40,226 nt of DNA from NCBI GenBank assembly GCA_010029775.1, contig RGWK01000001.1, positions 1-40,226 on the forward strand. Reading direction: 5' to 3'. Both the position numbers and the translations under genes were made by a program. This document shows positions 7,169 to 28,496 of this stretch, piece by piece. The notes beneath the pieces are model-generated. The model saw nothing but the letters and a program-made list of their open reading frames with translations. It made no database searches and was not told where the DNA came from. The DNA comes from Gammaproteobacteria bacterium (lineage in GTDB: Bacteria; Pseudomonadota; Gammaproteobacteria; Steroidobacterales; Steroidobacteraceae). Each line of letters starts with the position of its first letter. The stretch's first letter is position 1.

Positions 7169-7751
7169 CCGGGGAGCCCCACAGTGCGGCTAGCCGATCC
7201 TGCGCCTCGCGAACCCCGAGCCCCGCGTGGGCGGAAAACACCTGCACACTGGCAAGGCTCCCGAGTGCTGCACTCGCGGCTCGCAGACCCGCCGCGCGCT
7301 CGGCCTGGTTCAGCTTGTCGGCCTTGGAAAGCAGCACGTGAACCCCGCGCCGCGCAGGCTGCGCCCAATCGATCAGCGCAAAATCCTCCTCGCGCAAACC
7401 GCGGCGGGCATCCACGATCAGTATCAGGCCCCGCAAACTATCCCGCTCGCGCAAGGCATCGAGCAGCGGCAACCACTTTTTCCGCTCCTCGGGGCGCACC
7501 GAGGCGTAGCCATACCCGGGGAGATCAACGATCCGGCGCCCGGCCTCCAATTCGAAGTAGTTCAGCAGCCGGGTCTGCCCGGGGGTCTTGCTGGTGCGGG
7601 CCAAAGCCTTGCGCTCGGCGACGGCGTTGATCGCACTGGACTTGCCCGCATTGGACCGCCCGGCAAAGGCCACTTCCGCACCGACATCGGCGGGGAACTG
7701 CTCCTTGGCTGCCACGCTCAGAAGGAAATTGGCCTGTGGGAAGCGTGACAC
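7164..7751 (-). CDS. engB: ribosome biogenesis GTP-binding protein YihA/EngB
   Basis: G1 motif GRSNAGKSS, G3 motif DLPGYG, G4 motif SKADK. Lies next to polA, the classical position. Confidence 0.92.
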   Translation of the reverse strand: MSRFPQANFLLSVAAKEQFPADVGAEVAFAGRSNAGKSSAINAVAERKALARTSKTPGQTRLLNYFELEAGRRIVDLPGYGYASVRPEERKKWLPLLDALRERDSLRGLILIVDARRGLREEDFALIDWAQPARRGVHVLLSKADKLNQAERAAGLRAASAALGSLASVQVFSAHAGLGVREAQDRLAALWGSPE

Positions 7752-7783
7752 CCCTTTAGTGTAAACTGCCGAGGTCGAATTCG

Positions 7784-8452
7784 ATGTCTGGAGCCTGCGA
7801 AATGTTCATTTGTCCGCCCTCCGCGAGGGTCATCGCCGTATTGTTGTTGTCGGTCGTGCTCGCGCCTGCCGCCTTGGCCCGAGGCAATGCCGAAGCCGGC
7901 GCAGCCAAGGCCGCCGTCTGCGCCGCCTGTCACGGTGCCAACGGCAACAGCGTCAACCCGGAATGGCCGAATCTCGCCGGTCAAAACTCGCGCTACATCG
8001 CCGAGCAGCTCAAGCTGTTCCGCGCCGGTCACCGCAACAACGCAGTGATGTATCCGCTCGCGATGGCGCTGACGGATGAAGATATCGCGGATCTGTCGGC
8101 CTACTTCGCTACGCTGACCCCGACCGGCCTCGAAGCGGACCCGGCAACCTACAAGGCCGGCGAAGCGCTGTACCGCGGTGGCGATCGGGCGCGCAACATT
8201 CCCTCCTGCACCTCATGCCACGGCCCGGTTGGCCTCGGTAATTCCGGGGCGGGGTATCCGGCACTGCGTGCGCAGCACTCAACCTACACCCTCAAGCAAC
8301 TGGCCGACTACGCGAGCGATCAGCGCTACCTCGACATCGCCACCGGCAATCCGACGAAGTCGATGAATGGTCACATGATGTCGACTATTGCCAAGCGGCT
8401 GAGCGAAGACGACAAGCGCGCCCTCGCCAGCTATATCCAGGGTCTGCGCTGA
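7784..8452 (+). CDS. dihaem cytochrome c4
   Basis: Two CxxCH haem sites (CAACHG and CTSCHG) with a signal peptide. The true start may be the ATG at 7802 (MFICPP...). Confidence 0.88.
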   Translation: MSGACEMFICPPSARVIAVLLLSVVLAPAALARGNAEAGAAKAAVCAACHGANGNSVNPEWPNLAGQNSRYIAEQLKLFRAGHRNNAVMYPLAMALTDEDIADLSAYFATLTPTGLEADPATYKAGEALYRGGDRARNIPSCTSCHGPVGLGNSGAGYPALRAQHSTYTLKQLADYASDQRYLDIATGNPTKSMNGHMMSTIAKRLSEDDKRALASYIQGLR

Positions 8453-8465
8453 AATCCATCTCACG

Positions 8466-9173
8466 GTGATGCCCATGACGACGATCACTCGAGCGTTTAC
8501 CCGTCTTCCACTGTTCGCAGTCGCCGTGGCGCTGCTCTTCACAGCCGCTGCACCGTCATCTCACGCACAGGGCGCGGCGGCGGTGCCGAGCAAGTGGCAA
8601 CAGGGCCGCCACTACCGCAGCGTCGTACCGCAAATGCCGACCTCGGTCGCGCCAGGAAAAGTCGAAGTAGTCGAGATCTTCTGGTACGGCTGCGGCGCGT
8701 GCTACATGCTCGATCCGTACCTTGAGAGTTGGAAAAAGAAAGACAAGCCGGCCAACGTCGAATTCGTACGCGTCCCCGTCACGTGGAACGAAGGCGCCAA
8801 GATGCACGCGCGACTCTTCTACACGCTGCAGGCCCTGAAGCAGGACGAACGACTGCACACCAAAGTATTCGACACCATCCACCGCGGTGGTAACGGCCTG
8901 CTCGGCCGCGACGCGGAATCAACCCTGCCGGTCGTCCGCGATTGGGCCAAAGCCAACGGTATCGACCCGAAGGCGTTCACGGACGCATGGAATTCCATGT
9001 GGGTGAACACGAAGTTGCGCCAAGCGGACGAGATCGTCCGGCGCTATCGCGCCGAAGGCACGCCGTTCATGGCCGTCAACGGTCGCTGGTCGACGGATAT
9101 CAACTCGGCAGGCGGCGTGCCGCAGATGCTCGAGCTCATCAACACACTAGCCCGCGCCGAGCAGCCACGCTGA
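8466..9173 (+). CDS. dsbA: thiol:disulfide interchange protein DsbA
   Basis: Signal peptide, active site WYGCGACY (CxxC), DsbA-length thioredoxin fold, and a position directly after cytochrome c4. Confidence 0.88.
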   Translation: MMPMTTITRAFTRLPLFAVAVALLFTAAAPSSHAQGAAAVPSKWQQGRHYRSVVPQMPTSVAPGKVEVVEIFWYGCGACYMLDPYLESWKKKDKPANVEFVRVPVTWNEGAKMHARLFYTLQALKQDERLHTKVFDTIHRGGNGLLGRDAESTLPVVRDWAKANGIDPKAFTDAWNSMWVNTKLRQADEIVRRYRAEGTPFMAVNGRWSTDINSAGGVPQMLELINTLARAEQPR

Positions 9174-9203
9174 CCCCGCGGCGCGCTCGGAGTATCAGCG
9201 CGC

Positions 9204-10184
9204 ATGATCGGCTGTTTCCTGCTCGATGATCAGGGTCTGCAGCGACGAGTCGTTGCCGCCCAAGAAACCCTGCCGGAGGCTGCCCTCTGGATTGATCTGC
9301 TCGAGCCCGCCCCTGATGAAGAAGCGCAGGTGGAGCGCTTTCTCGCAGTCGATGTTCCGACACGCGAGGAGATGCGCGAAATCGAGTCTTCGAATCGGCT
9401 CTACGAGGAAAACGGCTCGCTCTACATGACCGCAACCGTGGTCACGAAGCTCGATACCGAGCGCCCCGAGAGCAGCCAGATCACCTTCATCCTCACAGCA
9501 AATCGACTGATCACCAACCGCTACGTCGATCTGCTGCCGTTTCGTCGCTACATTGCCTATGCAGAGCGGCATCGAAGCAGCTGCACCTCCGCCGCAGCCG
9601 TCTTGGCAGGGCTGCTCGAGGCGATGGTCAACCGGATCGCCGATGTGCTCGAGCGTATCGGCGGTGACATCGATGCCGTATCGGCCGAAGTCTTCACGCC
9701 ACCTCCGCCCGGGCAGCGACGGCGGCATACGCGCGATTATCGGCTGATCCTCGAGCGTGTGGGCCGCAATGGTGATCTGACCTCCAAGGCCCGCGAGACA
9801 CTCGCCAGCCTGACCCGACTGCTCGCATTCCTGCAGCAGTCCAACCATCCGTTGCTGACCCCGGAGGTGCGCAGCAGGCTAAAGAGCTTGGTTCGCGACG
9901 TGACGCAAATGAGCGACCACGCGACATTCCTCGGCAACAAGGTGCAGTTCATGCTGGAGGCCACGCTCGGCATGATCAATATCGACCAGAACAACATCCT
10001 GAAGATCTTCTCGGTCGCGACCGTCGTGTTGCTTCCACCGTCGGTGATCGGCGCGATCTTCGGGATGAACTTCGAATGGATCCCGACCTCCGAGCAACCG
10101 TGGGGATTCCCGGCCGCCCTGCTGCTTATGGTGGCGAGCGCCGCCCTGCCCTACTGGCTCTTCAAGCGCCGCGGCTGGCTCTGA
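9204..10184 (+). CDS. corA: CorA-family divalent metal ion transporter
   Basis: GMN signature (FGMNFEWIP) followed by a final TM helix and a basic C-terminus. Long cytoplasmic N-domain. Confidence 0.85.
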   Translation: MIGCFLLDDQGLQRRVVAAQETLPEAALWIDLLEPAPDEEAQVERFLAVDVPTREEMREIESSNRLYEENGSLYMTATVVTKLDTERPESSQITFILTANRLITNRYVDLLPFRRYIAYAERHRSSCTSAAAVLAGLLEAMVNRIADVLERIGGDIDAVSAEVFTPPPPGQRRRHTRDYRLILERVGRNGDLTSKARETLASLTRLLAFLQQSNHPLLTPEVRSRLKSLVRDVTQMSDHATFLGNKVQFMLEATLGMINIDQNNILKIFSVATVVLLPPSVIGAIFGMNFEWIPTSEQPWGFPAALLLMVASAALPYWLFKRRGWL

Positions 10185-10244: not shown

Positions 10245-12539
10245 ATGAAAATCTGGCGCCGCTCAATCTGTCTCGGCAGCCTGCTGCTCGTACCGCTGGC
10301 GGCGCAGGCCAACAACCAGCACTTTGCGCTAGCGGCCACCGGACGCTTTGACGAACTCGCGCGCCTAATCGAGGCGGATGAGCAGGCCTCGGGCAAGCCG
10401 CTGCGGACGGCCGACCGCCATGCCTTGTGCTTCGCGTATTCAAAAATCAAACGCTACGACAAGTTGTTGCCCTGTCTCGACCGACTCGAAGAGCGGATCC
10501 GCGGGGGAGACCTACGCACCCGGCTGCTCGGCCTCGACGATGGCACGCCCACCGTACACGTCATGCGAGCCGATGCGTTGATCGAACTCGGCCAGTACGC
10601 CGATGCGATCGACGAAGCGCAGAAAGGGCTCAAGTGGCTGCGGGAGGCAGACAGCGACGATCTGGACATGATCGTTAACCTCATGGCCGCAGTCTCGCTC
10701 GCGGCCACGCTCGAGGGCGATCGTGAAGCCGGCGGCAACTACGCACGGGAGCTCGATGATTTCGAGCTCGGCCTGCTCGGCCGCGACTACGTCGGCACCA
10801 AGGCCATGGCGCTCGGGCGGGTGTACATGGCTCTCGGTGAGTTCGACAAGGCGGTCAAGGCCATCGAAAGCGATACCACCTTCGGATTACGCAGCTTCCT
10901 CGACAATCTCGTCAGTGGCGCAACGCTACGCGGCGTGAACAACTGGCTCTGGGCGGAACTGCCGCGCAACTTCATGATCACCAAGGCCTACTTCGAAACA
11001 GGCCGTATCGACGAAGCGCGCCAGGGCTACGATGAACTGCTTGGCATACCGCAGGTGCGCGCCAACGGCGAGATCTACTGGCAGCTACTTAGCGATCGCG
11101 CCCGCATCCACGAGCTCGACGGCGAGATCGACAAGGCGCTCGAACGCTACCGCGAAGCAGTCGAAGTGATCGAGCGACAACGCCTGAGCATCAACACGGA
11201 GACCAATAAAATCGGTTTCGTCGGTGACAAGCAAGCCGTGTACGGTCGATTGGTCGACGCGCTGTACCGCACTGGTCGCATCGAACAGGCCTTCGAGTTC
11301 ATCGAGCGCTCTAAGGCGCGCGCGCTGGTCGACCTGCTCGCCACCAAGAACGAACTCAAGGGTGCATCCCTGTTGGCACTCACGGAAGCGGATCGCCTGG
11401 CGATCGAGCAAGCCCCGGCCGACATGGATGCGCTGGCGAGCAGCGCACAGCGTGAAGCCGAAGCCGCGCGCCTGACCGCGGAGTTGCGCCGCAATGATCC
11501 GGAACTGGCTTCGCTCGTCACCGTCACCGCCGTGCCTATTGTCGAGATCCAGAGTCGCTTGCTCGTCGATGAAGTCGTGGTGCAGTACTACCTGAGTGGC
11601 GAGCAACTGTTCGTGGGCGCGGTGACAAAAGATGCTGTGAGCATGCAGCGCGTGGCCGCAGGAGACCTCGCGGCAAAGGTGCGCCGATTGCGCGTGACTA
11701 TTCAGGAGGACGAGGACGAGAATCGCTCTCGGGAGTACGCCAAGGAACTGTATGACATTCTGCTTGGACCCGTGCGCCCACTCTCAGCAGGCAAAAATCT
11801 CCTCATCGTTCCGCACGGTGTGCTGCATTACCTGCCGTTCGCAGCGCTGTACGACGGCAACGATTACCTGATGCAAAACACGCTGATCCGCTTCCTGCCG
11901 AGCGCGAGCACGATTCGCTTCCTGCGGGCCCCCTCCGGCACACAAAAAGACCCCGTGCTAGTGCTGGCCAATCCCGACTTGCAGGATACCTCGCTCGATC
12001 TGCCGTTTGCCGAGACTGAAGGCCGATACATCGCACAAAGCATCCCGTCCAGCGAGATCTTCGCGCGATCGCAAGCGTCGGAGGAAATCTTCAAGGCGCG
12101 CGCACCCACTTTCCGCATGCTGCACATCGCCTCGCATGGCGAGTTCAACGGGGCCGACGCCCTGCGATCAAGGTTGCTGCTCGCCAAATCGGGAGCGGAA
12201 GATGGTTCGCTGACCGTGGGCGATCTATACAACATGCGCCTCGACGCCGATCTCGTTACCCTGTCAGCCTGTGAAACCGGGCTTGGCAAGGTGCAGACCG
12301 GTGACGACGTGCTGGGGCTGACCCGTGGCTTCCTGTTTGCCGGCAGCAGCAATATCGTGGCGAGCCAGTGGAAGGTTGATGATCAGGCTACAGCTGTGCT
12401 GATGCAGTATTTTTATGCGAACCTCAGCCAAGGCAAGCCCAAGCGTGAAGCGCTGCGGGATGCGCAGCGCGAAACTCGCAAGACATATGCTCATCCGTTC
12501 TACTGGGCGGCGTTCTACCTCACGGGTCTCGGAGTCTGA
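10245..12539 (+). CDS. exported TPR-repeat CHAT-domain (caspase-fold) protease
   Basis: Signal peptide MKIWRRSICLGSLLLVPLAAQA and a TPR-like helical N-half. The C-terminal CHAT motifs are LHIASHGEF (His codon 12135-12137) and LSACETG (Cys codon 12270-12272), and the protein ends ...HPFYWAAFYLTG. Confidence 0.85.
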   Translation: MKIWRRSICLGSLLLVPLAAQANNQHFALAATGRFDELARLIEADEQASGKPLRTADRHALCFAYSKIKRYDKLLPCLDRLEERIRGGDLRTRLLGLDDGTPTVHVMRADALIELGQYADAIDEAQKGLKWLREADSDDLDMIVNLMAAVSLAATLEGDREAGGNYARELDDFELGLLGRDYVGTKAMALGRVYMALGEFDKAVKAIESDTTFGLRSFLDNLVSGATLRGVNNWLWAELPRNFMITKAYFETGRIDEARQGYDELLGIPQVRANGEIYWQLLSDRARIHELDGEIDKALERYREAVEVIERQRLSINTETNKIGFVGDKQAVYGRLVDALYRTGRIEQAFEFIERSKARALVDLLATKNELKGASLLALTEADRLAIEQAPADMDALASSAQREAEAARLTAELRRNDPELASLVTVTAVPIVEIQSRLLVDEVVVQYYLSGEQLFVGAVTKDAVSMQRVAAGDLAAKVRRLRVTIQEDEDENRSREYAKELYDILLGPVRPLSAGKNLLIVPHGVLHYLPFAALYDGNDYLMQNTLIRFLPSASTIRFLRAPSGTQKDPVLVLANPDLQDTSLDLPFAETEGRYIAQSIPSSEIFARSQASEEIFKARAPTFRMLHIASHGEFNGADALRSRLLLAKSGAEDGSLTVGDLYNMRLDADLVTLSACETGLGKVQTGDDVLGLTRGFLFAGSSNIVASQWKVDDQATAVLMQYFYANLSQGKPKREALRDAQRETRKTYAHPFYWAAFYLTGLGV

Positions 12540-12540
12540 G

Positions 12541-14514
12541 ATGTCACGATGGTTTGCGACTTTGCTGCTGGTGGCGAGCCTACTGCCCTCACCCGTGCGG
12601 GCGGAGACGCAGGAGCCGTTCAAGCACGCGCTGATCATCGGTGTGTCGATCTATCGTGACGAGGAAATCCCGCCGCTGTTCGGCGTACCGAATGATCTGG
12701 ACAGTGCCAAAGAAATCGCCGTGGCGATGGGTATCCCGGAAGGCAACGTCACGGAGCTCTTCAACGAACAGGCCACCAAGGATCGGATCATCGCGGAACT
12801 CGGCAAACTCGCTGCGCAGGCCTCGGACGGTGGGCGCATCCTCGTCTATTTCTCCGGCCACGGTACACGCTGGCGTGATCCAAACGCAGGCGGTTGCGTC
12901 GAGGGCTTGCTGACCTGGGATCGCAAGGTCATCGTCAATCGGGAGTTCGCCCAGTACGCCAAGCCGCTCGGCAGCAAAGCCGACAAGTTGATCATCATGT
13001 TCGACGCCTGCCACTCCGGCGGCATTGCGGGGATCCGCCGCAATACGCGCTCGCTAGGCGAGGAAAACGGCGGCCTGCGACCCAAGTTCTTCATGAAGGC
13101 CGATGAAACCGGTACGGCCTGCAATCGCCCTTCCAACGTGCGTACGCGCAGTCTCCTCGGTCAAAATACCGACGGCGTCGATGCACTGCCCGAGAACGTC
13201 GTGCACATCACCTCGGCACGATCCGATGAAGTCAGTTTCGACGAACCCAGTCGCGGCGGGCTCGCCACACAGGCAATGAAGAGTTGTTTGCTCGGTGCCG
13301 CCAAGGACCTGGATGGCAGCGGCGCCGTGACACTCGCTGAAGTAGAGCAATGTGCACAGGACTTCATCAGCACCAAGGTCGCCCGCTTCCCTGACCTGCT
13401 GCCGCATCACGTCAGCGTGACCGGCTTGCGCAACATGATCCCGGTCGCAGCTGCCGGCAAACCCACCCAGTCAGCAGCGCCCACGGCTGAAGCCGCGCGG
13501 CTCGAGCGCGAACGACTGCAACGCGAGCAGGCAGCGCTTGAGGAACAGCACCGCGCCGAGGAGCGGCGCGCGGCCGAGCAACGCGCCGAGAAGATTCGGC
13601 TGGAGCAGCAGCGCCTCGCGGCCGAACGCGCCGAAGCCGAGCGACTCGCCAAACTTGAACAGGAGCGACTGGCCCGCGAGGCCGAGCAGGCACGCCTCGC
13701 CCAACTCGAAAAGCAACGCCTCGCGCGTGAAGCTGAGATCACGCGCGTTGCCGAGGCAGAGCGCAAGCGGCTGGCTGCAGAAGCCGCCGCCGCCGAAGCT
13801 GCGCGGCGTGAATCCGAGCGACTCGCGCAGGTGGCCCGGGAGCGGCAACAACGCGAGGAGGCCGAACTGCGCGCCGAACAGGAGCGCCTGGCTGAGCTTG
13901 CGCGAGCGGCAGCCGAAGAGAGAAAGCGCCTCGCCGCAGCACAGGTCGCTCAGTCGGCAGCGGCGGCTGCGCAGACCACACCATCGGCCCCTGCGCCCGC
14001 ACCTGCCGAGCCACCACCCGTGTCGGCCATCGCGTCGGTTCAAAACTTGTACGACCAGCGTGATCCACGACGCACGCTGGCCGTCACCATGCCACGCAAG
14101 TCCTTGCGCATCGGGCAAGACCCCTTCGAGATGACGATCACCTCGAAGCACGACGGGCATGTCTACATTGTTCTGCTCGGCAGCGACCAGACGAGTTTCT
14201 ATCTGCTGTTCCCCAATGGCTTGGATGGCAGCAACAAAATAAAAGCCAACGTGCCCATGCGCCTGCCACGACCGAACTGGGGCGTGGTCGCCGGCGGCCC
14301 GCCCGGCACCGATCACGTGCTCGTACTCGTGACCGACAATCCGCGTGATTTGTCGGTGCTGAGCAGCAACGCCGCGAACGCCGAGGCGCCCTACACCTTC
14401 AAAGCGGCCGATGCCGGCGGTCGGCGCGAACTGATCAATTTCGTCATCGGCGAAGGCGTGCGGGGATCGCCGCGATTTGCCGCTGCCTGGCTCAAAGTGG
14501 AGGAAGTCCCGTGA
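12541..14514 (+). CDS. exported caspase-family (peptidase C14) protein with EF-hand-like loop, ER/K-rich helix and C-terminal DUF4384-like domain
   Basis: The ATG at 12541 lies 1 nt after the CHAT stop and opens a signal peptide MSRWFATLLLVASLLPSPVRA. The catalytic dyad is YFSGHG (His 12859-12861) and FDACHSGG (Cys 13009-13011). The C-terminus HDGHVYIVLLGSDQTSFYLLFPNG is typical of DUF4384. Confidence 0.85.
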   Translation: MSRWFATLLLVASLLPSPVRAETQEPFKHALIIGVSIYRDEEIPPLFGVPNDLDSAKEIAVAMGIPEGNVTELFNEQATKDRIIAELGKLAAQASDGGRILVYFSGHGTRWRDPNAGGCVEGLLTWDRKVIVNREFAQYAKPLGSKADKLIIMFDACHSGGIAGIRRNTRSLGEENGGLRPKFFMKADETGTACNRPSNVRTRSLLGQNTDGVDALPENVVHITSARSDEVSFDEPSRGGLATQAMKSCLLGAAKDLDGSGAVTLAEVEQCAQDFISTKVARFPDLLPHHVSVTGLRNMIPVAAAGKPTQSAAPTAEAARLERERLQREQAALEEQHRAEERRAAEQRAEKIRLEQQRLAAERAEAERLAKLEQERLAREAEQARLAQLEKQRLAREAEITRVAEAERKRLAAEAAAAEAARRESERLAQVARERQQREEAELRAEQERLAELARAAAEERKRLAAAQVAQSAAAAAQTTPSAPAPAPAEPPPVSAIASVQNLYDQRDPRRTLAVTMPRKSLRIGQDPFEMTITSKHDGHVYIVLLGSDQTSFYLLFPNGLDGSNKIKANVPMRLPRPNWGVVAGGPPGTDHVLVLVTDNPRDLSVLSSNAANAEAPYTFKAADAGGRRELINFVIGEGVRGSPRFAAAWLKVEEVP

Positions 14515-15050
14515 GAAGTGCAAGTCTGTTATCCGTATTCGTTGTTGCTGCGCTCTGCAGTCAACCGGCCTTTGTCCAAAACACGCCAAGTCAGACCCTG
14601 TCGGCCGAGGACATCATCAAGCAGCTCGCCCCGCCTGATCCGTCGGCAACGCCGGCGCCCGCCGCAGGGACCGAGGGCCGCACCCGATCCTTGCGCAATC
14701 TCAAACCGGTCGCGCGCAGCATCGACATGAGCATCAACTTCGAGTTCAACTCGGCCAAGATCACGGCGGACAGCCTGCCTGTGCTCGAGCAACTGAGCAT
14801 CGCCATGAAGGCCAACCAGCTGGCGCAAACCCGATTCATGGTCGAGGGGCACACGGACGCCAAGGGCAGCGCACGGTACAATCTTGAGCTGTCCGCACGA
14901 CGCGCCCAATCCGTCGTGACCTATCTGCAATCGCAAGGAGTTGAGGCTGTTCGGCTCGAATCGGTGGGCAAGGGGTTCACGGAACTGCTCAACAACACCG
15001 ACCCGCTCGCGGCTGAGAACCGGCGCGTGCGCATCAAGGCTCTGCCCTGA
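14511..15050 (+). CDS. OmpA-like peptidoglycan-binding protein, exported
   Basis: GTG start overlaps the caspase stop (GTGA). Signal peptide present. OmpA_C motifs: FEFNSAKI, VEGHTDAKGSARYNLELSARRAQSV, NRRVRI. Confidence 0.85.
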   Translation: MRSASLLSVFVVAALCSQPAFVQNTPSQTLSAEDIIKQLAPPDPSATPAPAAGTEGRTRSLRNLKPVARSIDMSINFEFNSAKITADSLPVLEQLSIAMKANQLAQTRFMVEGHTDAKGSARYNLELSARRAQSVVTYLQSQGVEAVRLESVGKGFTELLNNTDPLAAENRRVRIKALP

Positions 15051-15062
15051 GGATTATCAAAC

Positions 15063-15542
15063 ATGACCGCGCCGACTCGTCCGCTCACTGCGCTTGCCGT
15101 CAAGCTCATGGCGCTGTGCATCGCCACAGCCGCCACCGCCACTTGGGCGCAGGAACCGCTGATGCTCGTGACGGAGGCGGAAATGCAGGCCTCGCTCGCA
15201 GCACCCGAACCTCTCTTTCCGCGCTTTACGCCGGAGCCCGGGGCGCCGCGCATCCTGGTTGATGCACCCAAGCTCAATACCTCGGTGAGCTCACCGACCA
15301 CGCTCAAGCTGCGCTTTGAGCCGGAGACGGGCACCACCATTCGACCGGAGACTTTCAAGGTCAGGTATGGCTCATTGCGCATAGACATCACTGCGCGCAT
15401 CACCGGTTCGACCACTGTCACCGAACAAGGCTTCGCCGTCGACAAGGCAGCCCTACCCAAGGGACGGCACACGTTGATCGTCGCGATCGAGGATGGCGTC
15501 GGCCGGCTGTCTGAGCGACAGCTGCAGTTTGAAATTCTTTGA
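15063..15542 (+). CDS. small exported protein of unknown family (beta-rich, possibly Ig-like)
   Basis: Signal peptide ...ATATWAQEP. GC3-rich codons. Sits 12 nt after the OmpA-like gene and 13 nt before the S41 gene. I recognise no family motif. Confidence 0.6.
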   Translation: MTAPTRPLTALAVKLMALCIATAATATWAQEPLMLVTEAEMQASLAAPEPLFPRFTPEPGAPRILVDAPKLNTSVSSPTTLKLRFEPETGTTIRPETFKVRYGSLRIDITARITGSTTVTEQGFAVDKAALPKGRHTLIVAIEDGVGRLSERQLQFEIL

Positions 15543-15555
15543 TAAAGGACTGACC

Positions 15556-17292
15556 ATGATGACGAACTTGCGCGGTCCGCTGACCGCACTGGTCGCTGCC
15601 GTGCTGCTTGTCGCCTGCGGCGGCGGCGGTGGTGGCAGTGGCGGATCCGGAGGCGGCTCAACGACTTCGGTGCCGGGCGCTCCCACCAACATCGTGGTGG
15701 CAGCGGGAAACGGCACGGCGACCGTGAGTTTCACTGCGCCGCTCAGCAACGGCTCGTCGGCCATTCTCGATTACACCGCCACCTGTACAGCCAGCGGCGC
15801 CAACCGCACGGCGACGGGTACGGGCAGTCCGCTCACGGTCACCGGCCTCACCAACGGCACGAGCTACAACTGCACGGTCACGGCACGTAACGCCGTGGGC
15901 AGCGGAGCAGCTTCCACCGGCGCCAGCGTGACGCCGACCGCTCCCGTCACATCGTGTTCGGCGACGGATCGGAAGAACTGGGTCGTACAGCAGCTGCGCG
16001 AGTGGTATCTCTATCCGGAAACGCTGCCCACTACGGTGAATGTGGACGACTACGCCACCGTCGACGCCTTGATCAGCTTCATGACGGCCACGGCGCGGGC
16101 CCAAGGCAAGGATCGCAATTTCACTTACATCACTTCCATCGTCGAGGAGAACGCGTTCTTCAACTCGGGGGCCACCGCGGGTTTTGGCGTGCGTCTGTTC
16201 AGCGATACGGCAGCGCGCCGGGTCTTCATCACCGAAGCGTTCGAGAACGCGCCGGCTCTCACAGCCGGCATCGACCGACGCGACGAACTGCTTGGCATCG
16301 GCACGAGCGCTGCGAACATTCGCTCGGTAGCGGACATCATCAGCGCCGAGGGTGCCAGCGGCGTCACCAATGCGCTCGGCCCAAACACTGCGGGCACGAC
16401 GCGGGTTTTACGCGTCTCGGGACCTTCCGGCACACGCGATCTGACGGTCACCAAAGCGGATTACAGCATCGAACCGGTCTCGCCGCGCTACGGTGGCGTG
16501 ATCCTGCAGGATGGCACCAAGAAAGTCGGCTACATCAATCTGCGCACTTTCATTTCGTCGGCGAACGCCCGGTTGCGCGAGGAATTTCTGAAATTCCGCA
16601 ACGCAGGCATCACCGAGGTTATCGTGGATTTCCGTTATAACGGCGGCGGCCTCGTCTCCACCGGCGAGTTGATGGGCGATCTACTCGGCGGCAACCGATC
16701 CTCGGGCCAGATCTTCTCGCAACTGACGTTCCGCCCCGAAAAGTCATCGAACAACTCGGTCAAATATTTTGCGTCGCAACCGGAATCCGTTTCGCCAACC
16801 AAACTCGCCTTCATCGGCACGCGCTCAACCGCCTCGGCGAGCGAGCTCGTCATCAACGGTTTCATCCCGTATTTCAATGCGAACCTCGCATTGATCGGCG
16901 ACAACACGTTTGGCAAACCGGTCGGGCAAATCGCCGTCGATCGCACCGCCTGCGACGATCGCCTGCGAGTGCTCGCATTCACGACACGCAATTCGGCCAA
17001 CTCTGATGCCTACTTCAACGGCCTGGCAGAGGCTGTCAAGGCCAGCTGTCGCGCAGCAGACGATGTGACGCAGCCGTTGGGCAACGCCAGCGAAGCGTCA
17101 ACCCGACAAGCCCTCGACTATCTGGCAGGCAAGTCCTGCACGGCCATTCCCGTGAGTGCCGGTATCGCTGCGCTGACGGGTCGCAAGCAAGCGGCCGCCG
17201 CCGTCTTGCCGGAGATGGATACGCTCGAACTCGAGCCCTTGGTGCCCGACCAGCCGACGGTGGCACAACGCGAGATGCCCGGCCTGTTTTAA
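15556..17292 (+). CDS. lipoprotein with FN3-like domain and S41 (C-terminal processing) peptidase domain
   Basis: The ATG at 15556 opens a lipobox LLVACGGGG followed by a Gly/Ser linker. The FN3-like segment reads PGAPTNIVVAAGNGTATVSFTAP...YNCTVTARNAVG. S41 motifs are VIVDFRYNGGG, RSTASASELV and NTFGKPVGQ. Confidence 0.8.
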   Translation: MMTNLRGPLTALVAAVLLVACGGGGGGSGGSGGGSTTSVPGAPTNIVVAAGNGTATVSFTAPLSNGSSAILDYTATCTASGANRTATGTGSPLTVTGLTNGTSYNCTVTARNAVGSGAASTGASVTPTAPVTSCSATDRKNWVVQQLREWYLYPETLPTTVNVDDYATVDALISFMTATARAQGKDRNFTYITSIVEENAFFNSGATAGFGVRLFSDTAARRVFITEAFENAPALTAGIDRRDELLGIGTSAANIRSVADIISAEGASGVTNALGPNTAGTTRVLRVSGPSGTRDLTVTKADYSIEPVSPRYGGVILQDGTKKVGYINLRTFISSANARLREEFLKFRNAGITEVIVDFRYNGGGLVSTGELMGDLLGGNRSSGQIFSQLTFRPEKSSNNSVKYFASQPESVSPTKLAFIGTRSTASASELVINGFIPYFNANLALIGDNTFGKPVGQIAVDRTACDDRLRVLAFTTRNSANSDAYFNGLAEAVKASCRAADDVTQPLGNASEASTRQALDYLAGKSCTAIPVSAGIAALTGRKQAAAAVLPEMDTLELEPLVPDQPTVAQREMPGLF

Positions 17293-17320: not shown

Positions 17321-18246
17321 TCAGCGCAGCGATTCGACTAACACGTCGGCCAGATCTGCAATGAGTCGCAGCCCCGGGTTGTCGGGCGAGTAGTCGATCT
17401 CCGGCATATCGTCGACCGTGATGGCGAGGGCCACGCGTCCCTGCGGCGTGTAGACGATCCCCACGTCACTGCGCAGCGCATCGAGCCCGCCCGACTTGCT
17501 GAGCACCCGAGAGGCGCCCATGCGGCGCCCAATGCCATCCTTGTGTTTCTGTCGCTCGAGCATGTCGAGCACGATGCGCGAGGATTCCGCATCGACCACC
17601 TTGCCCTGCTCGAGCAGGGTGAGCAGAGTCACCATCTCTCTCGGCGTCGATGAGCCGATGCCGAAACGCTTGTTCGCTTCGATCGATCCGGCGCGGCTCC
17701 AACCTTCAGCAGGCTTCAGTTGCGTGCCGTCACCGCGGACTTTACGCATCGAGCGCGTGACCGGCAGGCCAAGCTCGTCCATGTAGTCGTTGACGGCATC
17801 TGCCGAGATGCGATCGAGAATCAGGTTGGTCGTGGTGTTATCGCTGACGGTAATCATCAGCATGGTCGCATCGCGCAGCGCCAGCGTCTTGCCTGCCGAA
17901 AGATCTGCCGCGACACCGGAGCCAGACACCTTGTCCTGCTCACGAAGCAGCAGGGGCTCATCCCACGAGACCTTCCCCCGCTTCACCAGCATCGCCACGG
18001 TGCAGGCGATCGGCAGTTTGATGGTGCTCGCCGTCCGCACGGGAACGTCGGCACGTACGCCGAACTCGCTGCCCGTGTCGAGGTTACGAGCGTACAGCGA
18101 TACGCTGCCGCGAAAACCCTCTGTAAGCGTGGCGACCCGCGCCGCGAGGGCGGTCGATGATGATGTAGCGTCGGTCTGCGCTGCTGCCGCCCAGGGCGAC
18201 AGCAGCGCAACCGCTGCAATGACGAGCCCGCCGAGTCGACTCAGAA
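17321..18246 (-). CDS. class A beta-lactamase-like serine hydrolase, exported; non-canonical start
   Basis: Motifs STIK (SxxK), SDN and KSG are present. The frame stays open upstream of the track's GTG (18040) and encodes a signal peptide SRLGGLVIAAVALLSPWAAAAQ. No ATG, GTG or TTG occurs before the in-frame stop at 18320-18322. The only plausible start is CTG at 18244-18246, overlapping the receptor stop (CTGA). Confidence 0.7.
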
Positions 18247-21222
18247 GTCCACCCGCACCGACAACTGCACGCGACGCGGCAGGAAGTAGCTGCGGGGCTG
18301 GCCGTAGTTGGCGGCAAACTCAACCTGCTGAATGTTGTAGCCGGTCTGCCGATCGAGCACGTTAAACACGTCGGCACGGAACTTCAGCATCGGCAAGGAG
18401 CCGATCTTGAAGCTCTGCGTGTAGTTCAGATCGAGCTGGTAATGACTGGCGGCGCGACGACTGCCCGCCGGCTCAGCGAACGAGCTGATGGCCGCCGAAG
18501 CGTTGACGAGACCATTGCCGTAGTAGTTACTCGACCAGGTCTCCCAGGGCTGTCCCGACTGATAGACGAGATACGCGCCGATGTTGGCCTTCCAATCCGT
18601 GGTGTAGTGGCCATACACCTTCAGGATGTGCGGCCGGTCACCCGACAAGGTGCCATCCTTGTTGTCCCAGACGTACTGTCCACGTGCATCGTTGTAGAAC
18701 GATGAACCGACGAAGGTGTTGGCATCGTTCACCGTGGTGGTGTTGTCCTGGTCGAAGTTGCCGCGATAGCGGCTGCGCACGTACGAAGCGTTGAGGTAGG
18801 TGCGCTCGCCCGTCCACTCGGCTTCGAGGCTCGCTTCCCAATACTTGGTGTAGCCGCCATCGACCTCGGCGATGACGTAGGTCGAACCCCCGATCTCTGC
18901 ACGGATTGCCGCGAGGTTCGGCACGTAATCACCGAGCGCGCGCAGCGCCTGCGGCACGCCACCGTTGGGGCCGTAGGTCCCTTCCTGCGAGCGCGCGAAG
19001 TTCCAGATGTCCTCCCAGAAGTGCGACCCCTCGCGGTAGCGCACGTGACCGCGGAGAGCCCAGCCATCGGACAGTCGTCGCGTGGTGCCGATCGTGAACT
19101 CATCGATACGGCGCGGTTTCATGTCGGGCACGAACACCTTGCCGCTCGAGGAGCCGCGATACACGGACTCGAGGAAATTGCCGTTCTGGTCGAAGCGAAT
19201 GTCGAGCACGCGACTGAACAAGTTGCGGTCCCAGGAGGCGGCACGGGACAACGAACTCGCCTCGGGGTTGTAGGAGGCAAAATTGGCAAACACCGTGTTC
19301 GACCCGTCGTACCGCCACGTGATGCCAAGTCGCGGCTGAATCATGTCCTTCCAGTCGATCGTGTACATCTTGTACTTGTTGCCCGGCGCGAGTTCGTAGC
19401 CCGAGACGGTGCCCTCCTTGGGCCGCAGACCCTGACCGTAGAGCTCATCCTTGCTGATGAGCACACCGAGGTTGAAGTCGAAGTCCTCCCAGGTGATCGT
19501 GTCGTTGAGTTCGATGTTGTACGACTTCGACGACGAGACGATCAGCGGCTTCAGCGGATTTCCATTGACGTCCTTCGCGCCCGACTCGGTAATCGTGGCC
19601 TGATAGAAGTATGGCACCCGCGGCGTCGTGGTCGTGGTGGTGACCGTGCCGCCGTTGTAGGCGATTACACCCCAACCCTGCGTGGTGCGCATCAACTCCT
19701 CGGAAATCTCTGAGAACTTGACGCCCGCGTGCAGCTGGTGGCTCGTGCTGCCGATCTCGAGCTTGTGATCGAGCGCTACCTCAAACGTGTCGCGATAGAA
19801 GTCCTGATCGTTGATCTCGGGCCACGCGCCGATACGACCACCACCCGCCTTCACGCCCGAAGAGTTCGTGTAGCCGTACTGGTTGATCAGCAGTTGCGCC
19901 TGCTGGTTGTAGAGGATCTGCGCAGGCGTCGTGGCCGTGGCGAGCAGGGTCGGCACCGTGAAGCGCCCCGCGTTGGTCAGATCGGCGATGTTGAGCTTGT
20001 CCCCCGGCTTACCGACGAACGACAGCACCTTGTCCGGCGTGCCTGCGGTCTCGAGGTCGAACTTGCCAAACTTGAAGCTCACCGAGGTGTTCTCGCCTGC
20101 GATCCATGAACCATCGAGCGTCAGGATGCTCTGCTCCGAGCGCTCCCCGGTGGACACCGTATCGGCATCGAGCGTGCCGATACCGGCGCCGTTGCCCTCA
20201 CGCTTGGAGGTGCGCAGGCTGACATTGAACAGCAAATCTTCCGTCGGAGCCCAGGTGAGCTTGCCGAAGTATTCGTTACGGATGCTTTCGTAATCTTTGA
20301 CTGCGCCGTACGCTGTAGTCGGATTGTCGCGGGTGACTTCGGGACGGTAGTAGGACGCGTAGAAGAACAGCGAATCCTCGATGATCGGACCGCCGAATCC
20401 GGCGTTGATCCAACTCTGGTCGAGCGAGTACTTCGAGATGCCGCGCACCTTGGAGACCAGGCTCTTGGGCTGCACCTTGTACTCGACCGTGCCCTTGTAC
20501 TCGTTGGTACCCGACTTGGAGGTCGTGTTGATGGAAAAACCGCCCGCGCGGTTGAAACCGATGGCCTTGACGCCACCGCGTTCCATCGACACGTTCGCCA
20601 CGTCATGAGTCGAGGGGTCGGCCGCGAGATTGCCGAACAGCGGCAGCGACACGTCCACACCATCGAATCCGTACTTATTGTCGACGCCTGAGCCGCCCGC
20701 AGAGGGGCCGAGCACCGCGTTTTCCGAATACTGCACGCCAGGCACGAGCTTGAGCAGGTCACGATAGCTTTGCCCCACGGGCAGACTCTCGACGTTCTTG
20801 GCACTCAAGGAGTTGCCGAGGGAGGCATTGCCTTGGCGGGACAGGCCACTCGAGACGATTGTGACGACCTGCAGGTCCTCGGCGCGCGTGGCCGACAGGG
20901 CGACATCGGCAATGGACGTCTGGTCCAGCAGCACCTCGACATCGACGCGCTGCAGCACACCGGCGGCGTTGCTGAAGGTCAGGGTGTACTTACCCGGCAG
21001 CAGCAGCGGCAGGTTGTAGCTGCCATCGGGGCGCACGGTGGCCGTACGCGGCTTCGGCATCACGTCGCTGGTGGCGGTGACGGTAATGCCGCCCACGGTC
21101 GACCCGGCCGCCTCGGCAGTGACCTTGCCGCGGATGCCACCGGCTTCCTGGGCAAACGAGGGTAGGGACAGAAGTGAGCCGGCCACGAGGGCGGCGGCCA
21201 CGGCTTTGGCGATTGGGTTCAT
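18241..21222 (-). CDS. TonB-dependent outer-membrane receptor, Oar-like (carboxypeptidase-regulatory-like N-domain)
   Basis: 993 aa with a signal peptide. N-terminal GIRGKVTAE...GGITVTATS beta-sandwich, then a plug region, a long beta-barrel with alternating aromatic residues, and a terminal ...VRVDF. Confidence 0.88.
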   Translation of the reverse strand: MNPIAKAVAAALVAGSLLSLPSFAQEAGGIRGKVTAEAAGSTVGGITVTATSDVMPKPRTATVRPDGSYNLPLLLPGKYTLTFSNAAGVLQRVDVEVLLDQTSIADVALSATRAEDLQVVTIVSSGLSRQGNASLGNSLSAKNVESLPVGQSYRDLLKLVPGVQYSENAVLGPSAGGSGVDNKYGFDGVDVSLPLFGNLAADPSTHDVANVSMERGGVKAIGFNRAGGFSINTTSKSGTNEYKGTVEYKVQPKSLVSKVRGISKYSLDQSWINAGFGGPIIEDSLFFYASYYRPEVTRDNPTTAYGAVKDYESIRNEYFGKLTWAPTEDLLFNVSLRTSKREGNGAGIGTLDADTVSTGERSEQSILTLDGSWIAGENTSVSFKFGKFDLETAGTPDKVLSFVGKPGDKLNIADLTNAGRFTVPTLLATATTPAQILYNQQAQLLINQYGYTNSSGVKAGGGRIGAWPEINDQDFYRDTFEVALDHKLEIGSTSHQLHAGVKFSEISEELMRTTQGWGVIAYNGGTVTTTTTTPRVPYFYQATITESGAKDVNGNPLKPLIVSSSKSYNIELNDTITWEDFDFNLGVLISKDELYGQGLRPKEGTVSGYELAPGNKYKMYTIDWKDMIQPRLGITWRYDGSNTVFANFASYNPEASSLSRAASWDRNLFSRVLDIRFDQNGNFLESVYRGSSSGKVFVPDMKPRRIDEFTIGTTRRLSDGWALRGHVRYREGSHFWEDIWNFARSQEGTYGPNGGVPQALRALGDYVPNLAAIRAEIGGSTYVIAEVDGGYTKYWEASLEAEWTGERTYLNASYVRSRYRGNFDQDNTTTVNDANTFVGSSFYNDARGQYVWDNKDGTLSGDRPHILKVYGHYTTDWKANIGAYLVYQSGQPWETWSSNYYGNGLVNASAAISSFAEPAGSRRAASHYQLDLNYTQSFKIGSLPMLKFRADVFNVLDRQTGYNIQQVEFAANYGQPRSYFLPRRVQLSVRVDF

Positions 21223-22872: not shown

Positions 22873-24504
22873 TCAGCCCGCGCGCGTCGGCTCGGTCAGA
22901 TACATCGGAAACACCACCCGAACAACCTCGCGCCACAATTTTGCGCGGGTGTCGTTCTCGTTGAGGCCGGCGATATCGACCAACAGCACTTCGTGGCCGT
23001 TCTGCCTCGCCTGCACGACCGACTGCAGGGCCTCGGGTGCCGCGCCATCCGGCAGAAAAGCGACCAGCAACTCGATGTTGCCAAATTCTTTGCCGAGAAA
23101 GGTCTTCACGTCGACGAAATCGGTCAGATGCAGCACCGCATCGTGCGACACCTCCCGCTCGAGCAGTCGGCGGATGCGCAAGCCCACGCTGCGCATGCCC
23201 GGTCGGTCGATATGCAGCGCGATGATCACCGCATGCTGCGCCTTGCCGACGCGTGAACCGTCCCAGAAGTACTCCACGCCGAGTTCGGTGGCGTGCTGGG
23301 CACTGAAATATGTCTTGGCGATGGTGAAGTAGACGAGTCCGACGTTGAACGGCAGCGTCATGTCGATAACGAAATTGGAGAAGCTGATGCTGAAGAAGGT
23401 AATCACGATCAGCGCCAACTGCCCAATGACGAACACCCGATTGATGGTCGACTGATCGGTACCGGCCATGAAGGCGCGTGACATGGCCACGAGAATGCCG
23501 AGCGCCAAAAGCAGCGCCACCCACGAGGGCATCATGCGCAGTGCCGTGCCATTCAACGCATCGTCGATGGCCGTCGCAATGATGGTGCTGTCGTCGGTGG
23601 TGACCGAGGCCGAGGTCGGCTTGATCACCGATATCCCGGGAGCGGTGGCGCCGATGATCACGATCTTGCCGGCGAACATCGACCAATCGAAGTTGCCGCG
23701 ACCCTGCGAGGCGGCATAGAGATCAGCGAACGATACCCGCCGATAGTCGCCCCGCTTGTTGCGCCAGTTGAGCTTGGCGTTAGGTTCGTCGCTGACGTCG
23801 ATCGAGCCGCCCGCAAGCTGGACGATCACCGCCGCCGTCGAGGGCAACGCATGCGATTGTGTCGGCACCCAATACTGGTAGCGGCGGATGATCCCGTCCC
23901 GTTCGGCGTAAAGGTTGGAGGCACCCATGCGCTTCTGCAGATTCTCGAATAGCGGCAGGATGGCCGCCACCGGATCTGCGGATGGCGAGGGCACCGTGGC
24001 GCGCGCGCCCGGCAATCGGGCAGCATCGAGTTGGCTCACGCCGTCATTGGCCGCCGGTAGCCGCACAAACGGAAAGACGATGTTGGAATAGGAGCCTGCG
24101 ATTTCATTGAGGCTCGCGTCGCCCTCAGGGTCGTTTTTCGAAGGTTCCGACACCAGTTGATTGAGCAGTATCGCCTGCGGCGACTCCTCGGCGATGGTGG
24201 CGAGCGCCTCGGCTACGACGCTGTTGCTCCACGGCCAGCGGCCATGGTCACGGCCCACTTCCTGCAGCGAGCGTTCGTCGATATCAATGATAACGATCCG
24301 CGGGTCGGGCGCCGGGCTCGAAATGCGCAGCTTGACGAGTCGGTCGTAGATCACCTCACTGCCACGCCCCATGACACCCTGCAGCGAGTAATCCGCCAGC
24401 AGCAGCACCGCGATCCCGGCGGCGAGCAACAGGTAGAAGCGCGCCTCCCACCGTCGGCACCAGCTGCCGAAACCTTGCAGCAGAGACAGCAGTAGGGTCT
24501 TCAT
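22873..24504 (-). CDS. CHASE2-domain membrane sensor with unassigned C-terminal domain
   Basis: N-terminal TM helix, then CHASE2 hallmarks (IVIIDIDERSL, GRWPWSNSVVAEAL, KIVIIGATAPG), three TM helices, then about 140 aa with no kinase, GGDEF or canonical cyclase motifs. The start overlaps the upstream stop (ATGA at 24501-24504). Confidence 0.8.
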   Translation of the reverse strand: MKTLLLSLLQGFGSWCRRWEARFYLLLAAGIAVLLLADYSLQGVMGRGSEVIYDRLVKLRISSPAPDPRIVIIDIDERSLQEVGRDHGRWPWSNSVVAEALATIAEESPQAILLNQLVSEPSKNDPEGDASLNEIAGSYSNIVFPFVRLPAANDGVSQLDAARLPGARATVPSPSADPVAAILPLFENLQKRMGASNLYAERDGIIRRYQYWVPTQSHALPSTAAVIVQLAGGSIDVSDEPNAKLNWRNKRGDYRRVSFADLYAASQGRGNFDWSMFAGKIVIIGATAPGISVIKPTSASVTTDDSTIIATAIDDALNGTALRMMPSWVALLLALGILVAMSRAFMAGTDQSTINRVFVIGQLALIVITFFSISFSNFVIDMTLPFNVGLVYFTIAKTYFSAQHATELGVEYFWDGSRVGKAQHAVIIALHIDRPGMRSVGLRIRRLLEREVSHDAVLHLTDFVDVKTFLGKEFGNIELLVAFLPDGAAPEALQSVVQARQNGHEVLLVDIAGLNENDTRAKLWREVVRVVFPMYLTEPTRAG

Positions 24505-27823: not shown

Positions 27824-27851
27824 GCTTTCATTTCCCTTCGAGGTGTAGATC

Positions 27852-28496
27852 ATGAGAACCCTGCTGCGCCTAAACCTCTCGCTCGTCACGCTGCTGATTT
27901 CGGCCTGCGTCACCATCAACGTGTACTTTCCGGCGGGCGCAGCGGAAAAGGCCGCGGACGAAATCATCGACTCGGTCATCAAGGGTGCGGGCAAGACTGC
28001 GCCTCGCAGTTCGGCACCCGCCACGAGGCCGAACACCCCGCCCTCATCCATGCGACAGGCACCCGACACGCACTGGCTGCTGTGGCTCGCCGGCCGCACT
28101 CTGTATGCACTGGTTCCTGCGGCACACGCTCAAGGCGTCGATGCCAACATGGACGTGTCGTCACCGGAGATCCGCGCCATCACAGCCTCGATGCAGCAGC
28201 GCTTCGGTCAACTTGAGCGTTTTTTCGATGCTGGGGTAATCGGGCTGACGACCACGGGTCTCATCGAAATACGCGATGCGAACGCGGCAGCACTGCCTGA
28301 TCGAGCGCTGGTACGCCGGCTTGTCGCCGATGACAACAACGACCGCAACGCGCTGTACGAGGCCATCGCCCGCGCCAACGACCGGCCCGAGTGGGAGGAA
28401 GACATCCGGCGAATCTTTGCTCAGCGCTGGATCGAGCGCGGCGCCAAGCCCGGTTGGTACTACCAGGACGGCGACGGCAACTGGCAGCAGCGCTGA
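27852..28496 (+). CDS. lipoprotein fused to a YdbL (DUF1318)-like domain
   Basis: Lipobox LLISAC followed by VTINVYFPAGAAEKAADEII. A Pro/Ser linker comes next, then a second signal-like segment WLLWLAGRTLYALVPAAHAQG. The C-terminal part NNDRNALYEAIARANDRPEWEEDIRRIFAQRWIERGAKPGWYYQDGDGNWQQR parallels E. coli YdbL. Confidence 0.65.
   Translation: MRTLLRLNLSLVTLLISACVTINVYFPAGAAEKAADEIIDSVIKGAGKTAPRSSAPATRPNTPPSSMRQAPDTHWLLWLAGRTLYALVPAAHAQGVDANMDVSSPEIRAITASMQQRFGQLERFFDAGVIGLTTTGLIEIRDANAAALPDRALVRRLVADDNNDRNALYEAIARANDRPEWEEDIRRIFAQRWIERGAKPGWYYQDGDGNWQQR

Follow-up and report, generated by a model that had tools for sequence, protein, structure and literature searches.

The window analysed here, the whole stretch of 40,226 nucleotides (nt) of contig RGWK01000001.1 (assembly GCA_010029775.1) from a Gammaproteobacteria bacterium, carries at positions 10245-17292 a run of five genes for predicted exported proteins, among them three proteases. 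The evolutionarily conserved unit in this run is three genes and not five, namely those for a metacaspase-type protease with C14 and DUF4384 domains, an OmpA-like protein and a small Ig-like protein, together referred to below as the triad. The locus defines a conserved set in which predicted exported caspase-fold proteases are paired with a putative peptidoglycan-binding protein, and which a second caspase-fold enzyme has joined repeatedly. Exported metacaspases and metacaspase-OmpA operons had been noted before, in a survey that did not define the triad (PMC3501461). The preferred reading, to which a little less than an even chance is given, is that of a periplasmic protease complex which is tethered to peptidoglycan, cuts specifically after Arg or Lys and serves the regulated proteolysis of the envelope, in homeostasis or signalling. 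The five genes are as follows.

10245-12539, plus strand: predicted exported TPR-CHAT protease, 764 amino acids (aa)
12541-14514, plus strand: predicted exported metacaspase-type C14-DUF4384 protease, 657 aa, start taken at the ATG preceding the signal peptide
14511-15050, plus strand: OmpA-like, putative peptidoglycan-binding protein, predicted soluble and periplasmic, 179 aa, GTG start
15063-15542, plus strand: small, predicted exported Ig-like protein, 159 aa
15556-17292, plus strand: predicted FN3-S41 lipoprotein serine peptidase, 578 aa

Conservation of the triad

An alignment of homologues of the small Ig-like protein was scanned over one genome per species, and the 34 loci obtained were annotated by phmmer and clustering. 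They are distributed over two proteobacterial classes, with carriers in Nevskiaceae, Steroidobacteraceae and many Burkholderiales, the latter including Limnohabitans, Hydrogenophaga, Roseateles, Paucibacter, Rubrivivax and Polaromonas. The gene order C14-DUF4384, OmpA-like protein, small protein was complete in 30 of the 34 genomes, usually with 4-nt overlaps. One of the remaining four loci is cut by a contig end and is consistent with the triad, two hold the small protein alone and one has another gene order. The same triad was found in all three of the extra loci that were retrieved with the caspase as anchor.

The sequence-only reading had treated all five genes as a unit, and co-occurrence outside this genome was confirmed. 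The triad recurs widely, but the five-gene order is confined to near Nevskiaceae relatives (L009/L012 and L013) whose small Ig-like proteins are approximately 80-87% identical to that of the window. In these relatives the operon is placed as in the window, after polA, engB, the cytochrome c4 gene, dsbA and corA. A sister lineage, comprising Steroidobacteraceae and L003, carries C14-DUF4384, OmpA-like protein, small protein, S41 peptidase and an S8-PKD peptidase, and CHAT is absent.

Layout, export and composition of the operon

Calling of open reading frames (ORFs) gave five plus-strand ORFs filling 10245-17292 in one tightly packed run, with junctions of +1 (CHAT/caspase), -4 (caspase/OmpA-like, GTGA), +12 (OmpA-like/small protein) and +13 nt (small protein/S41), and a Shine-Dalgarno-like motif precedes every one of the five starts. 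A promoter and terminator scan returned nothing above chance within the operon. Export was called heuristically from hydrophobicity and a check for AXA sites or a lipobox. All five N-termini have a basic n-region followed by a hydrophobic core, with maximum Kyte-Doolittle values of 2.4-3.2 over 10 residues; AXA-type cleavage sites are present in the CHAT protease and the metacaspase, and a canonical lipobox, LVAC, in the S41 protein. The orthologues retain the same N-termini.

Much of what had been read from the sequence alone is borne out by these data. The five co-directional genes and their spacing were reproduced at the same coordinates, and gene spacing together with export-like N-termini supports the proposed single, tightly coupled operon of exported proteins, each product having been expected to start with a Sec signal or lipobox. 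Pfam confirmed every domain that had been named (CHAT, C14, DUF4384, OmpA and S41). Both caspase-fold dyads had been called intact, and the codons for His (12135-12137) and Cys (12270-12272) of CHAT and for His (12859-12861) and Cys (13009-13011) of C14 are in frame and encode the expected residues; the Ser and Lys motifs of the S41 protein, TASASE and FGKP, were likewise located. The suggestion that parts of the S41 gene are poor in guanine and cytosine (GC) did not hold up, as the cited region 16741-16800 (48% GC) is a local dip of 60 nt without compositional meaning, and the gene overall has 62.9% GC and 76% GC at third codon positions (GC3), like its neighbours. GC and GC3 of all five genes are native and match the housekeeping neighbours, and the composition of the operon gives no evidence of horizontal transfer.

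The metacaspase-DUF4384 protein

The protease of the triad matches Peptidase_C14 (PF00656) at 1.6e-15 (57.9 bits against a cut-off of 21.4) and DUF4384 at 1.6e-13 in Pfam. It consists of a predicted signal peptide (residues 1-21, VRA|E), the C14 domain (approximately 25-262), a spacer (263-505) and DUF4384 (506-657), with the dyad formed by His107 within FSGHG and Cys157 within DACHSGG. Among structures in the PDB, GSU0716 (3BIJ) and plant metacaspase-4 (6W8S) align over SGHG and D-x-CHSGG with the dyads in register. The residues D52, S105, H107, D155 and C157 are invariant across all 32 complete orthologues, and D52, S105 and D155 fall on what we take, by homology and by comparison with metacaspase structures, to be the S1 pocket positions. 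Since the dyad and the pocket-aligned residues are invariant in the orthologues, the sequence points to an active enzyme, which by homology should cut after Arg or Lys.

The spacer between C14 and DUF4384 varies from 85 to 304 aa across orthologues. It is rich in E, A, R, Q, K and L in the window protein, these residues making up about 65-80% in nearly all proteins of the Nevskiales/Steroidobacterales type and in the Burkholderiales loci L021 and L029, and about 27-53% in the remaining orthologues. DUF4384 was modelled by AlphaFold2 (AF2) as a beta-sandwich, with a predicted local distance difference test (pLDDT) score of 80.5. A homologue search with the DUF4384 region alone gave 17 short fragments without new architectures, and one with the full-length protein gave close relatives only and did not reach distant contexts. 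In L005 and L006 (approximately 7525-9516) the gene calls of the collection break the caspase-DUF4384 gene into a 166-aa DUF4384 ORF and spurious minus-strand ORFs, the actual gene being a single ORF of 663 aa with both C14 and DUF4384; as a result, the caspase may be missed where gene context is read from precomputed tables.

The OmpA-like and Ig-like partners

The OmpA-like gene has a GTG start that overlaps the stop of the metacaspase gene by 4 nt. Its product matches OmpA (PF00691) at 5.6e-20 (71.9 bits against a cut-off of 27.2), and the peptidoglycan-binding signature GHTDAKG...LSARRA (GHTD...LSxRRA) is readable in the sequence. The motif TRSLRNL precedes the OmpA domain, and the form TR[S/G/A]LRNL, between signal peptide and OmpA domain, was present in all 47 distinct partner proteins. 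The scores were below the equivalog cut-offs of Pal (TIGR02802, 63.9 against 125.35), YiaD (90.5 against 175) and YfiB (65.2 against 128). A lipoprotein was considered and rejected, as the Cys of the protein lies outside any lipobox and is absent in the orthologues, and the protein is for this reason predicted to be soluble and periplasmic.

The small protein has no family match in Pfam or NCBIfam. It comprises a predicted signal peptide, a conserved N-terminal helix (LVTEAE.QAS), a linker that usually includes a basic residue in this family, and a beta-sandwich at residues 63-158. The pLDDT of its AF2 model was 81.1, with CopC as best Foldseek match (6e-4), a generic Ig fold, and weak Big_13 matches were seen in 11 of 25 family members. 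An assignment of function from the Foldseek neighbours of this model and of the DUF4384 model (CopC, CRIg, GbpA, complement MG domains and pilus chaperones) was rejected, the neighbours being generic Ig- or MG-like folds. The protein had earlier been labelled an orphan, which it is not: there are 135 detectable homologues, and its profile retrieved 1337 clusters at 50% identity among 1.84 billion representatives, a large family without a name. The giant proteins P0258 (3516 aa), P0301 and P0372 contain as many as 31 repeats, the match being restricted to roughly the final 40 positions of the profile, and are probably Ig-like repeat arrays rather than true members of the family.

The flanking TPR-CHAT and S41 proteases

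The protein encoded upstream of the triad matches CHAT (PF12770) at 5.4e-74 (249.7 bits against a cut-off of 24) in addition to TPR families. A predicted signal peptide (approximately residues 1-22, AQA|NN) is followed by TPR (approximately 90-360) and by CHAT (496-761), in which His631 lies within HIASHG and Cys676 within LSACETG. Csx29 chains in the PDB match residues 515-728 weakly (E approximately 4e-6), and the score against the NCBIfam Csx29 model NF041237 was 62.7 bits, over the CHAT domain only and against a cut-off of 300.

The downstream lipoprotein has a lipobox (LVAC|G) and a Gly/Ser linker, followed by FN3 (42-123; fn3, 6.6e-10), Pept_S41_N (140-172; 1.2e-06, 28.7 against 25.9 bits) and the S41 catalytic domain (323-462; PF03572, 5.3e-14, 52.6 against 24 bits). 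The Ser motif begins at nt 16828 and the Lys motif at nt 16909. PDB matches were 3K50, D1 protease and Prc. The protein scored below all named NCBIfam S41 families (prc, 71.9 against 218.6; CtpA-C, approximately 51-65 against more than 600; GFO_1087, 112.8 against 455). No PDZ domain was reported by Pfam, although the prc model aligns across the region where PDZ is expected. The S41 gene follows the small-protein gene only in the Nevskiales/Steroidobacterales loci, and because it was found in this one syntenic lineage, operon position is the sole argument for its functional coupling. An S8 subtilisin-like peptidase gene with PKD and He_PIG follows S41 on the same strand in L007 (11950-14163), L003 (12586-14556) and L128 (12651-14807). 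In L007 and L008 the S41 and S8 genes share 4 nt; in L003 and L128 a gap of about 50-240 nt lies between them. With S8 downstream of S41, the Steroidobacteraceae-type operon thus has three protease classes, without CHAT.

Second caspase-fold enzymes and membrane partners

In 21 of the 34 genomes the triad is adjoined by a second clan-CD protease, whose position and orientation vary. It is CHAT in four genomes and an exported C14 protease in 18, encoded upstream or downstream and on either strand, L040 having both, and in most Burkholderiales CHAT is replaced by the second C14. CHAT is thus a recurrent but optional partner of the triad, and every CHAT and C14 partner examined has a predicted signal peptide. 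Rubrivivax-type loci (L010, L011 and L045) have the order OmpA, C14-DUF4384, CHAT, small protein. When metagenome contigs were scanned for the CHAT type of approximately 1020 aa, 80 loci were obtained, many of them on short contigs, and CHAT adjoined the C14-DUF4384 gene, the OmpA gene or both in at least 18 of the 80, in at least six different orders. As there is at most about one caspase-DUF4384 gene per genome, such adjacency appears to exceed chance proximity by far. The 764-aa CHAT protein of the window and the approximately 1020-aa proteins of the other loci are 26% identical over the CHAT domain alone, and recruitment of CHAT, from two different subfamilies, therefore seems to have happened more than once.

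Second exported caspases were recorded in L005 (4187-6124, minus strand), L021 (5655-8480, minus strand), L031 (10455-12935), L040 (10891-13995) and L127 (10545-12371). Most have a signal peptide, an N-terminal domain without assignment, a coiled coil and a C-terminal C14 domain with FYAGHGVQ and IDACRDNPF; that of L040 differs in having an N-terminal C14 domain followed by Sel1-like repeats. Just downstream of the second caspase gene in L031 lies a further caspase gene (12835-14781) with a sulfatase-modifying-enzyme-like C-terminus. In Limnohabitans-type loci (L005, 6114-7513; L022, L023, L024, L026, L027, L029 and L032) two genes are added directly upstream of the triad, one for a paralogue of the small Ig-like protein and one for a 276-aa protein, neither with a Pfam family. 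The 276-aa protein has an N-terminal cytoplasmic Zn-ribbon, a coiled coil and about four transmembrane helices; it was compared with the 282-aa protein of the Rubrivivax-type loci and found to be unrelated.

In several CHAT-anchored loci the gene for a CHASE2 membrane protein lies between the OmpA and caspase genes, and the caspase of these loci bears an extra N-terminal SH3 domain. The CHASE2 and Zn-ribbon inner-membrane partners fit transmembrane signalling. The window itself encodes a CHASE2 protein at 22873-24504 (minus strand), 31% identical (1e-54) to that of the CHAT/OmpA/caspase-DUF4384 loci, and its gene overlaps by 4 nt that of an exported SH3-M48 peptidase at 24501-25694 (minus strand). 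A module of SH3 and 'GL..LS.GREA.GN' is common to this M48 peptidase and the N-terminus of the CHASE2-linked caspases, which suggests that the SH3 module couples different proteases to CHASE2. Whether the operon might be functionally linked to the CHASE2/M48 pair, at a distance of 5.6 kb, was considered, and the idea was dropped: the metacaspase of the window is without the SH3 module, for which reason the pair is treated as a separate finding, and the pair was not seen near the Steroidobacteraceae operon.

Chromosomal context, selection and defence systems

The window is ordinary chromosome with polA, dapF, hslVU, amtB, a gene for an Mg-chelatase-like ATPase and one tRNA gene, the latter being the only hit in an Rfam scan. 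No CRISPR array, Cas genes or mobile-element genes were found in it, and the annotated large ORFs are housekeeping or envelope genes. All Nevskiales/Steroidobacterales loci have the operon at one and the same site, with polA-engB-cytochrome c4-dsbA-corA on one side and a beta-lactamase-like gene on the other. The ratio of nonsynonymous to synonymous substitution rates (dN/dS) against two relatives was 0.04-0.12 for the five genes (0.04-0.05 for CHAT and 0.12 for the small protein) and 0.02-0.08 for corA and dsbA, and all five genes are under purifying selection. PADLOC-DB 2.0 gave no system-level match. The matches were generic only, with caspase on the metacaspase, an OmpA-like part of ZorB and a weak BovA, and the small Ig-like and S41 proteins were without any match. 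Stable housekeeping synteny, low dN/dS and the lack of a PADLOC system match argue against a mobile defence island.

The beta-lactamase-like gene downstream of the operon (17321-18240, minus strand; class A-like, Beta-lactamase2, 8e-49) has a GTG at 18040 as its listed start. Upstream of this GTG the frame continues without a stop as far as the neighbouring receptor gene, and it can be aligned with residues 28-305 of the L009 orthologue, which has 305 aa; the true start therefore lies upstream and may be non-canonical. This neighbour, at 18241-21222 (minus strand), 1 kb downstream of the operon, is TonB-dependent-receptor-like. A run of envelope genes at 25757-29726 (plus strand) encodes a 688-aa protein for which Pfam gave no match, a DUF1318 protein and a third protein that matches DUF748 in part and below threshold. 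Conflict genes lie 2-8 kb from the triad or the lone small-protein gene in three unrelated loci, L127 (1241-5725, DUF4062-NB-ARC-WD40), L001 (1991-4702, DUF4062) and L003 (18604-20477, TIR_2-AAA_16); the proximity of these STAND and TIR genes may be coincidence.

Proposed function and alternatives

The operon is best seen, provisionally, as a conserved periplasmic module of three proteins with extensions that are specific to Nevskiaceae. Metacaspase-DUF4384, soluble OmpA-like protein and Ig-like protein would assemble into a wall-tethered protease complex, as translational coupling of their genes suggests, with the OmpA-like partner as putative anchor and the Ig-like partner as a possible regulator or substrate. 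To this module the lineage of the window would have added the TPR-CHAT protease upstream and the S41 lipoprotein protease downstream. Regulated, site-specific periplasmic proteolysis is the most likely mode of action, in which a second caspase-fold enzyme, CHAT here and C14 elsewhere, may act on the tethered metacaspase, by processing or activating it, or may have substrates in common with it. Such a system would serve homeostasis of the envelope or signalling, and not immunity in the cytoplasm. We infer complex formation, peptidoglycan tethering, P1 specificity, cascade order and physiological role alike. If correct, the wall-tethered complex would give bacterial metacaspases a concrete role in the envelope, offer candidate substrates in the TR[S/G/A]LRNL motif and in the Ig-like protein's linker, and provide a context for DUF4384 and for the unnamed family of approximately 150 residues (more than 1300 clusters at 50% identity).

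A number of observations tell against this proposal. Signal peptides are called by sequence heuristics alone; Foldseek searches with the models of DUF4384 and of the small Ig-like protein each returned only generic beta-sandwich neighbours, with template modelling (TM) scores of about 0.4 and without functional information; and members of the caspase and CHAT families are in general over-represented in conflict systems. In a few genomes (L001/L039 and L033) the small protein is encoded by itself, and the S41 linkage, confined as it is to one syntenic lineage, could reflect an inherited neighbourhood only. The survey took the small protein, the caspase and a single CHAT subfamily as its anchors, and its frequencies are conditional on these. 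Finally, the Steroidobacteraceae loci are without any second caspase-fold protease, and a two-caspase cascade therefore cannot be essential to the core.

A stronger version of the proposal, and quite an unlikely one, is a periplasmic caspase cascade in which an envelope-sensing CHAT or second C14 protease acts as initiator and activates a peptidoglycan-tethered, Arg/Lys-specific metacaspase as executioner, ending in a release or a signal. The executioner would cut the TR[S/G/A]LRNL tether of the OmpA-like partner, the basic linker of the Ig-like partner or both, so releasing the complex or generating a signal, and in related loci the cue could arrive through the membrane partners, CHASE2 or the Zn-ribbon protein. 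An envelope-anchored proteolytic cascade, for surveillance or for maturation of envelope proteins, had been suggested from the sequence alone; a cascade would agree with the recurrent association of two caspase-fold enzymes and, if true, would be an extracytoplasmic bacterial analogue of apoptotic caspase activation.

The main rival to a homeostatic or signalling complex is an envelope-level conflict system of anti-phage, anti-predator or suicide type, in which proteases held inactive at the wall would be triggered by a breach or by foreign proteins to destroy proteins of the envelope, in a manner resembling abortive infection. Prokaryotic conflict systems typically employ caspase and CHAT domains as effectors (PMC7159879; PMC10907252), and the modular and variable partners (CHAT, second C14, S41, S8, CHASE2 and the Zn-ribbon transmembrane protein), the patchy distribution across freshwater Beta- and Gammaproteobacteria, the match of the generic PADLOC caspase model to the metacaspase and the STAND and TIR genes within a few kb in some loci (L003 and L127) are in keeping with it. 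The position among housekeeping genes is, however, stable across families, and neither mobile elements nor CRISPR or Cas genes were found in the window. GC and GC3 are native, the dN/dS values are no higher than those of the housekeeping neighbours and gave no sign of diversifying selection over the range tested, and PADLOC offers neither a system for the locus nor any model for its last two genes. Housekeeping synteny, native composition and purifying selection thus favour homeostasis or signalling over a mobile defence island, and a conflict system is judged unlikely, if still the rival to be taken most seriously.

Less likely than the conflict system is nutrient scavenging, an improbable reading by which the exported proteases degrade environmental or periplasmic proteins and peptides for uptake by freshwater heterotrophs. 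The hosts are indeed planktonic freshwater bacteria, exported proteases accumulate at the locus (S41 here, S41 and S8-PKD in Steroidobacteraceae), and the TonB-dependent-receptor-like gene is close by. Yet this gene runs in the opposite direction and has no counterpart in the Burkholderiales loci, secretion-system genes were not seen nearby, S41 and S8 are lineage-restricted add-ons, and the core joins a site-specific metacaspase, a peptidoglycan anchor and a small partner by 4-nt overlaps, implying a stoichiometric complex. That the five genes are unrelated in function and adjacent by chance is very improbable indeed: S41 co-occurs in one syntenic lineage only and CHAT is missing from the nearest sister lineage, as chance would allow, but the triad recurs in more than 40 loci of two classes, it has come together with CHAT and C14 partners in a variety of orders and orientations, and the junctions are tight or overlapping.

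Comparison with known systems

The architecture had been thought to be without a described function, and this agrees with searches of the literature on DUF4384, on CHAT in combination with OmpA and the periplasm, and on CHASE2 in combination with caspase, in which no description of this system was found. To our knowledge, all mechanistically understood bacterial caspase-fold systems, such as Craspase and the gasdermin activators, are cytoplasmic. The NTPase/EACC1 and gasdermin-activating conflict systems share caspase-fold effector domains with the present locus and differ from it in that the proteins here are predicted to be exported and that NTPase, EAD adaptor and gasdermin neighbours were not seen; the model for the EACC1-associated type of caspase gave a weak match of 46 bits, below its cut-off of 140. 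Pal, YiaD and YfiB resemble the OmpA-like partner in the OmpA_C-like domain with its peptidoglycan-binding signature; the partner is distinguished by lacking a lipobox or beta-barrel, by the TR[S/G/A]LRNL motif and by the position of its gene after that of a caspase.

Among the S41 proteolytic systems of the envelope, Prc-NlpI and CtpA-LbcA have TPR lipoproteins as adaptors, by which peptidoglycan hydrolases are targeted, and CtpB functions in sporulation signalling. The likeness here is an S41 Ser/Lys peptidase predicted to act in the envelope, a TPR protein in the same system and a putative link to peptidoglycan, whereas the S41 protein is itself an FN3 lipoprotein, an NlpI or LbcA homologue is lacking and the TPR is fused to CHAT.

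Csx29 of the type III-E CRISPR system Craspase and the CHAT protease of the window both combine TPR with a CHAT domain bearing a His/Cys dyad. Some Csx30 proteins, the substrates of the TPR-CHAT protease Csx29, end in DUF4384, and DUF4384 is often fused to proteases (bioRxiv 10.1101/2022.08.17.504292); here it is fused to the neighbouring caspase. Csx29, however, is a protein of the cytoplasm that is found in complex with Cas7-11 and responds to target RNA by activation, whereas the present protein has a predicted signal peptide, and the Craspase neighbours (Cas7-11/gRAMP, a CRISPR array, Csx30, Csx31 and RpoE) were not found in the window.

The metacaspases and orthocaspases are the relatives of the central protease, which has the p20-type fold with SGHG and D-x-CHSGG and acidic residues aligned with the S1 pocket. 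A survey of metacaspases from 2012 (Asplund-Samuelsson et al.) regarded N-terminal helices as probable signal peptides, recorded OmpA in 14 metacaspase operons and 20 multi-metacaspase operons, and assigned no function (PMC3501461). The triad was not defined in that survey, and it is the fusion to DUF4384, the TR[S/G/A]LRNL-OmpA and Ig-like partners and the recurrent CHAT or second C14 protease that set the present loci apart from the operons described there.

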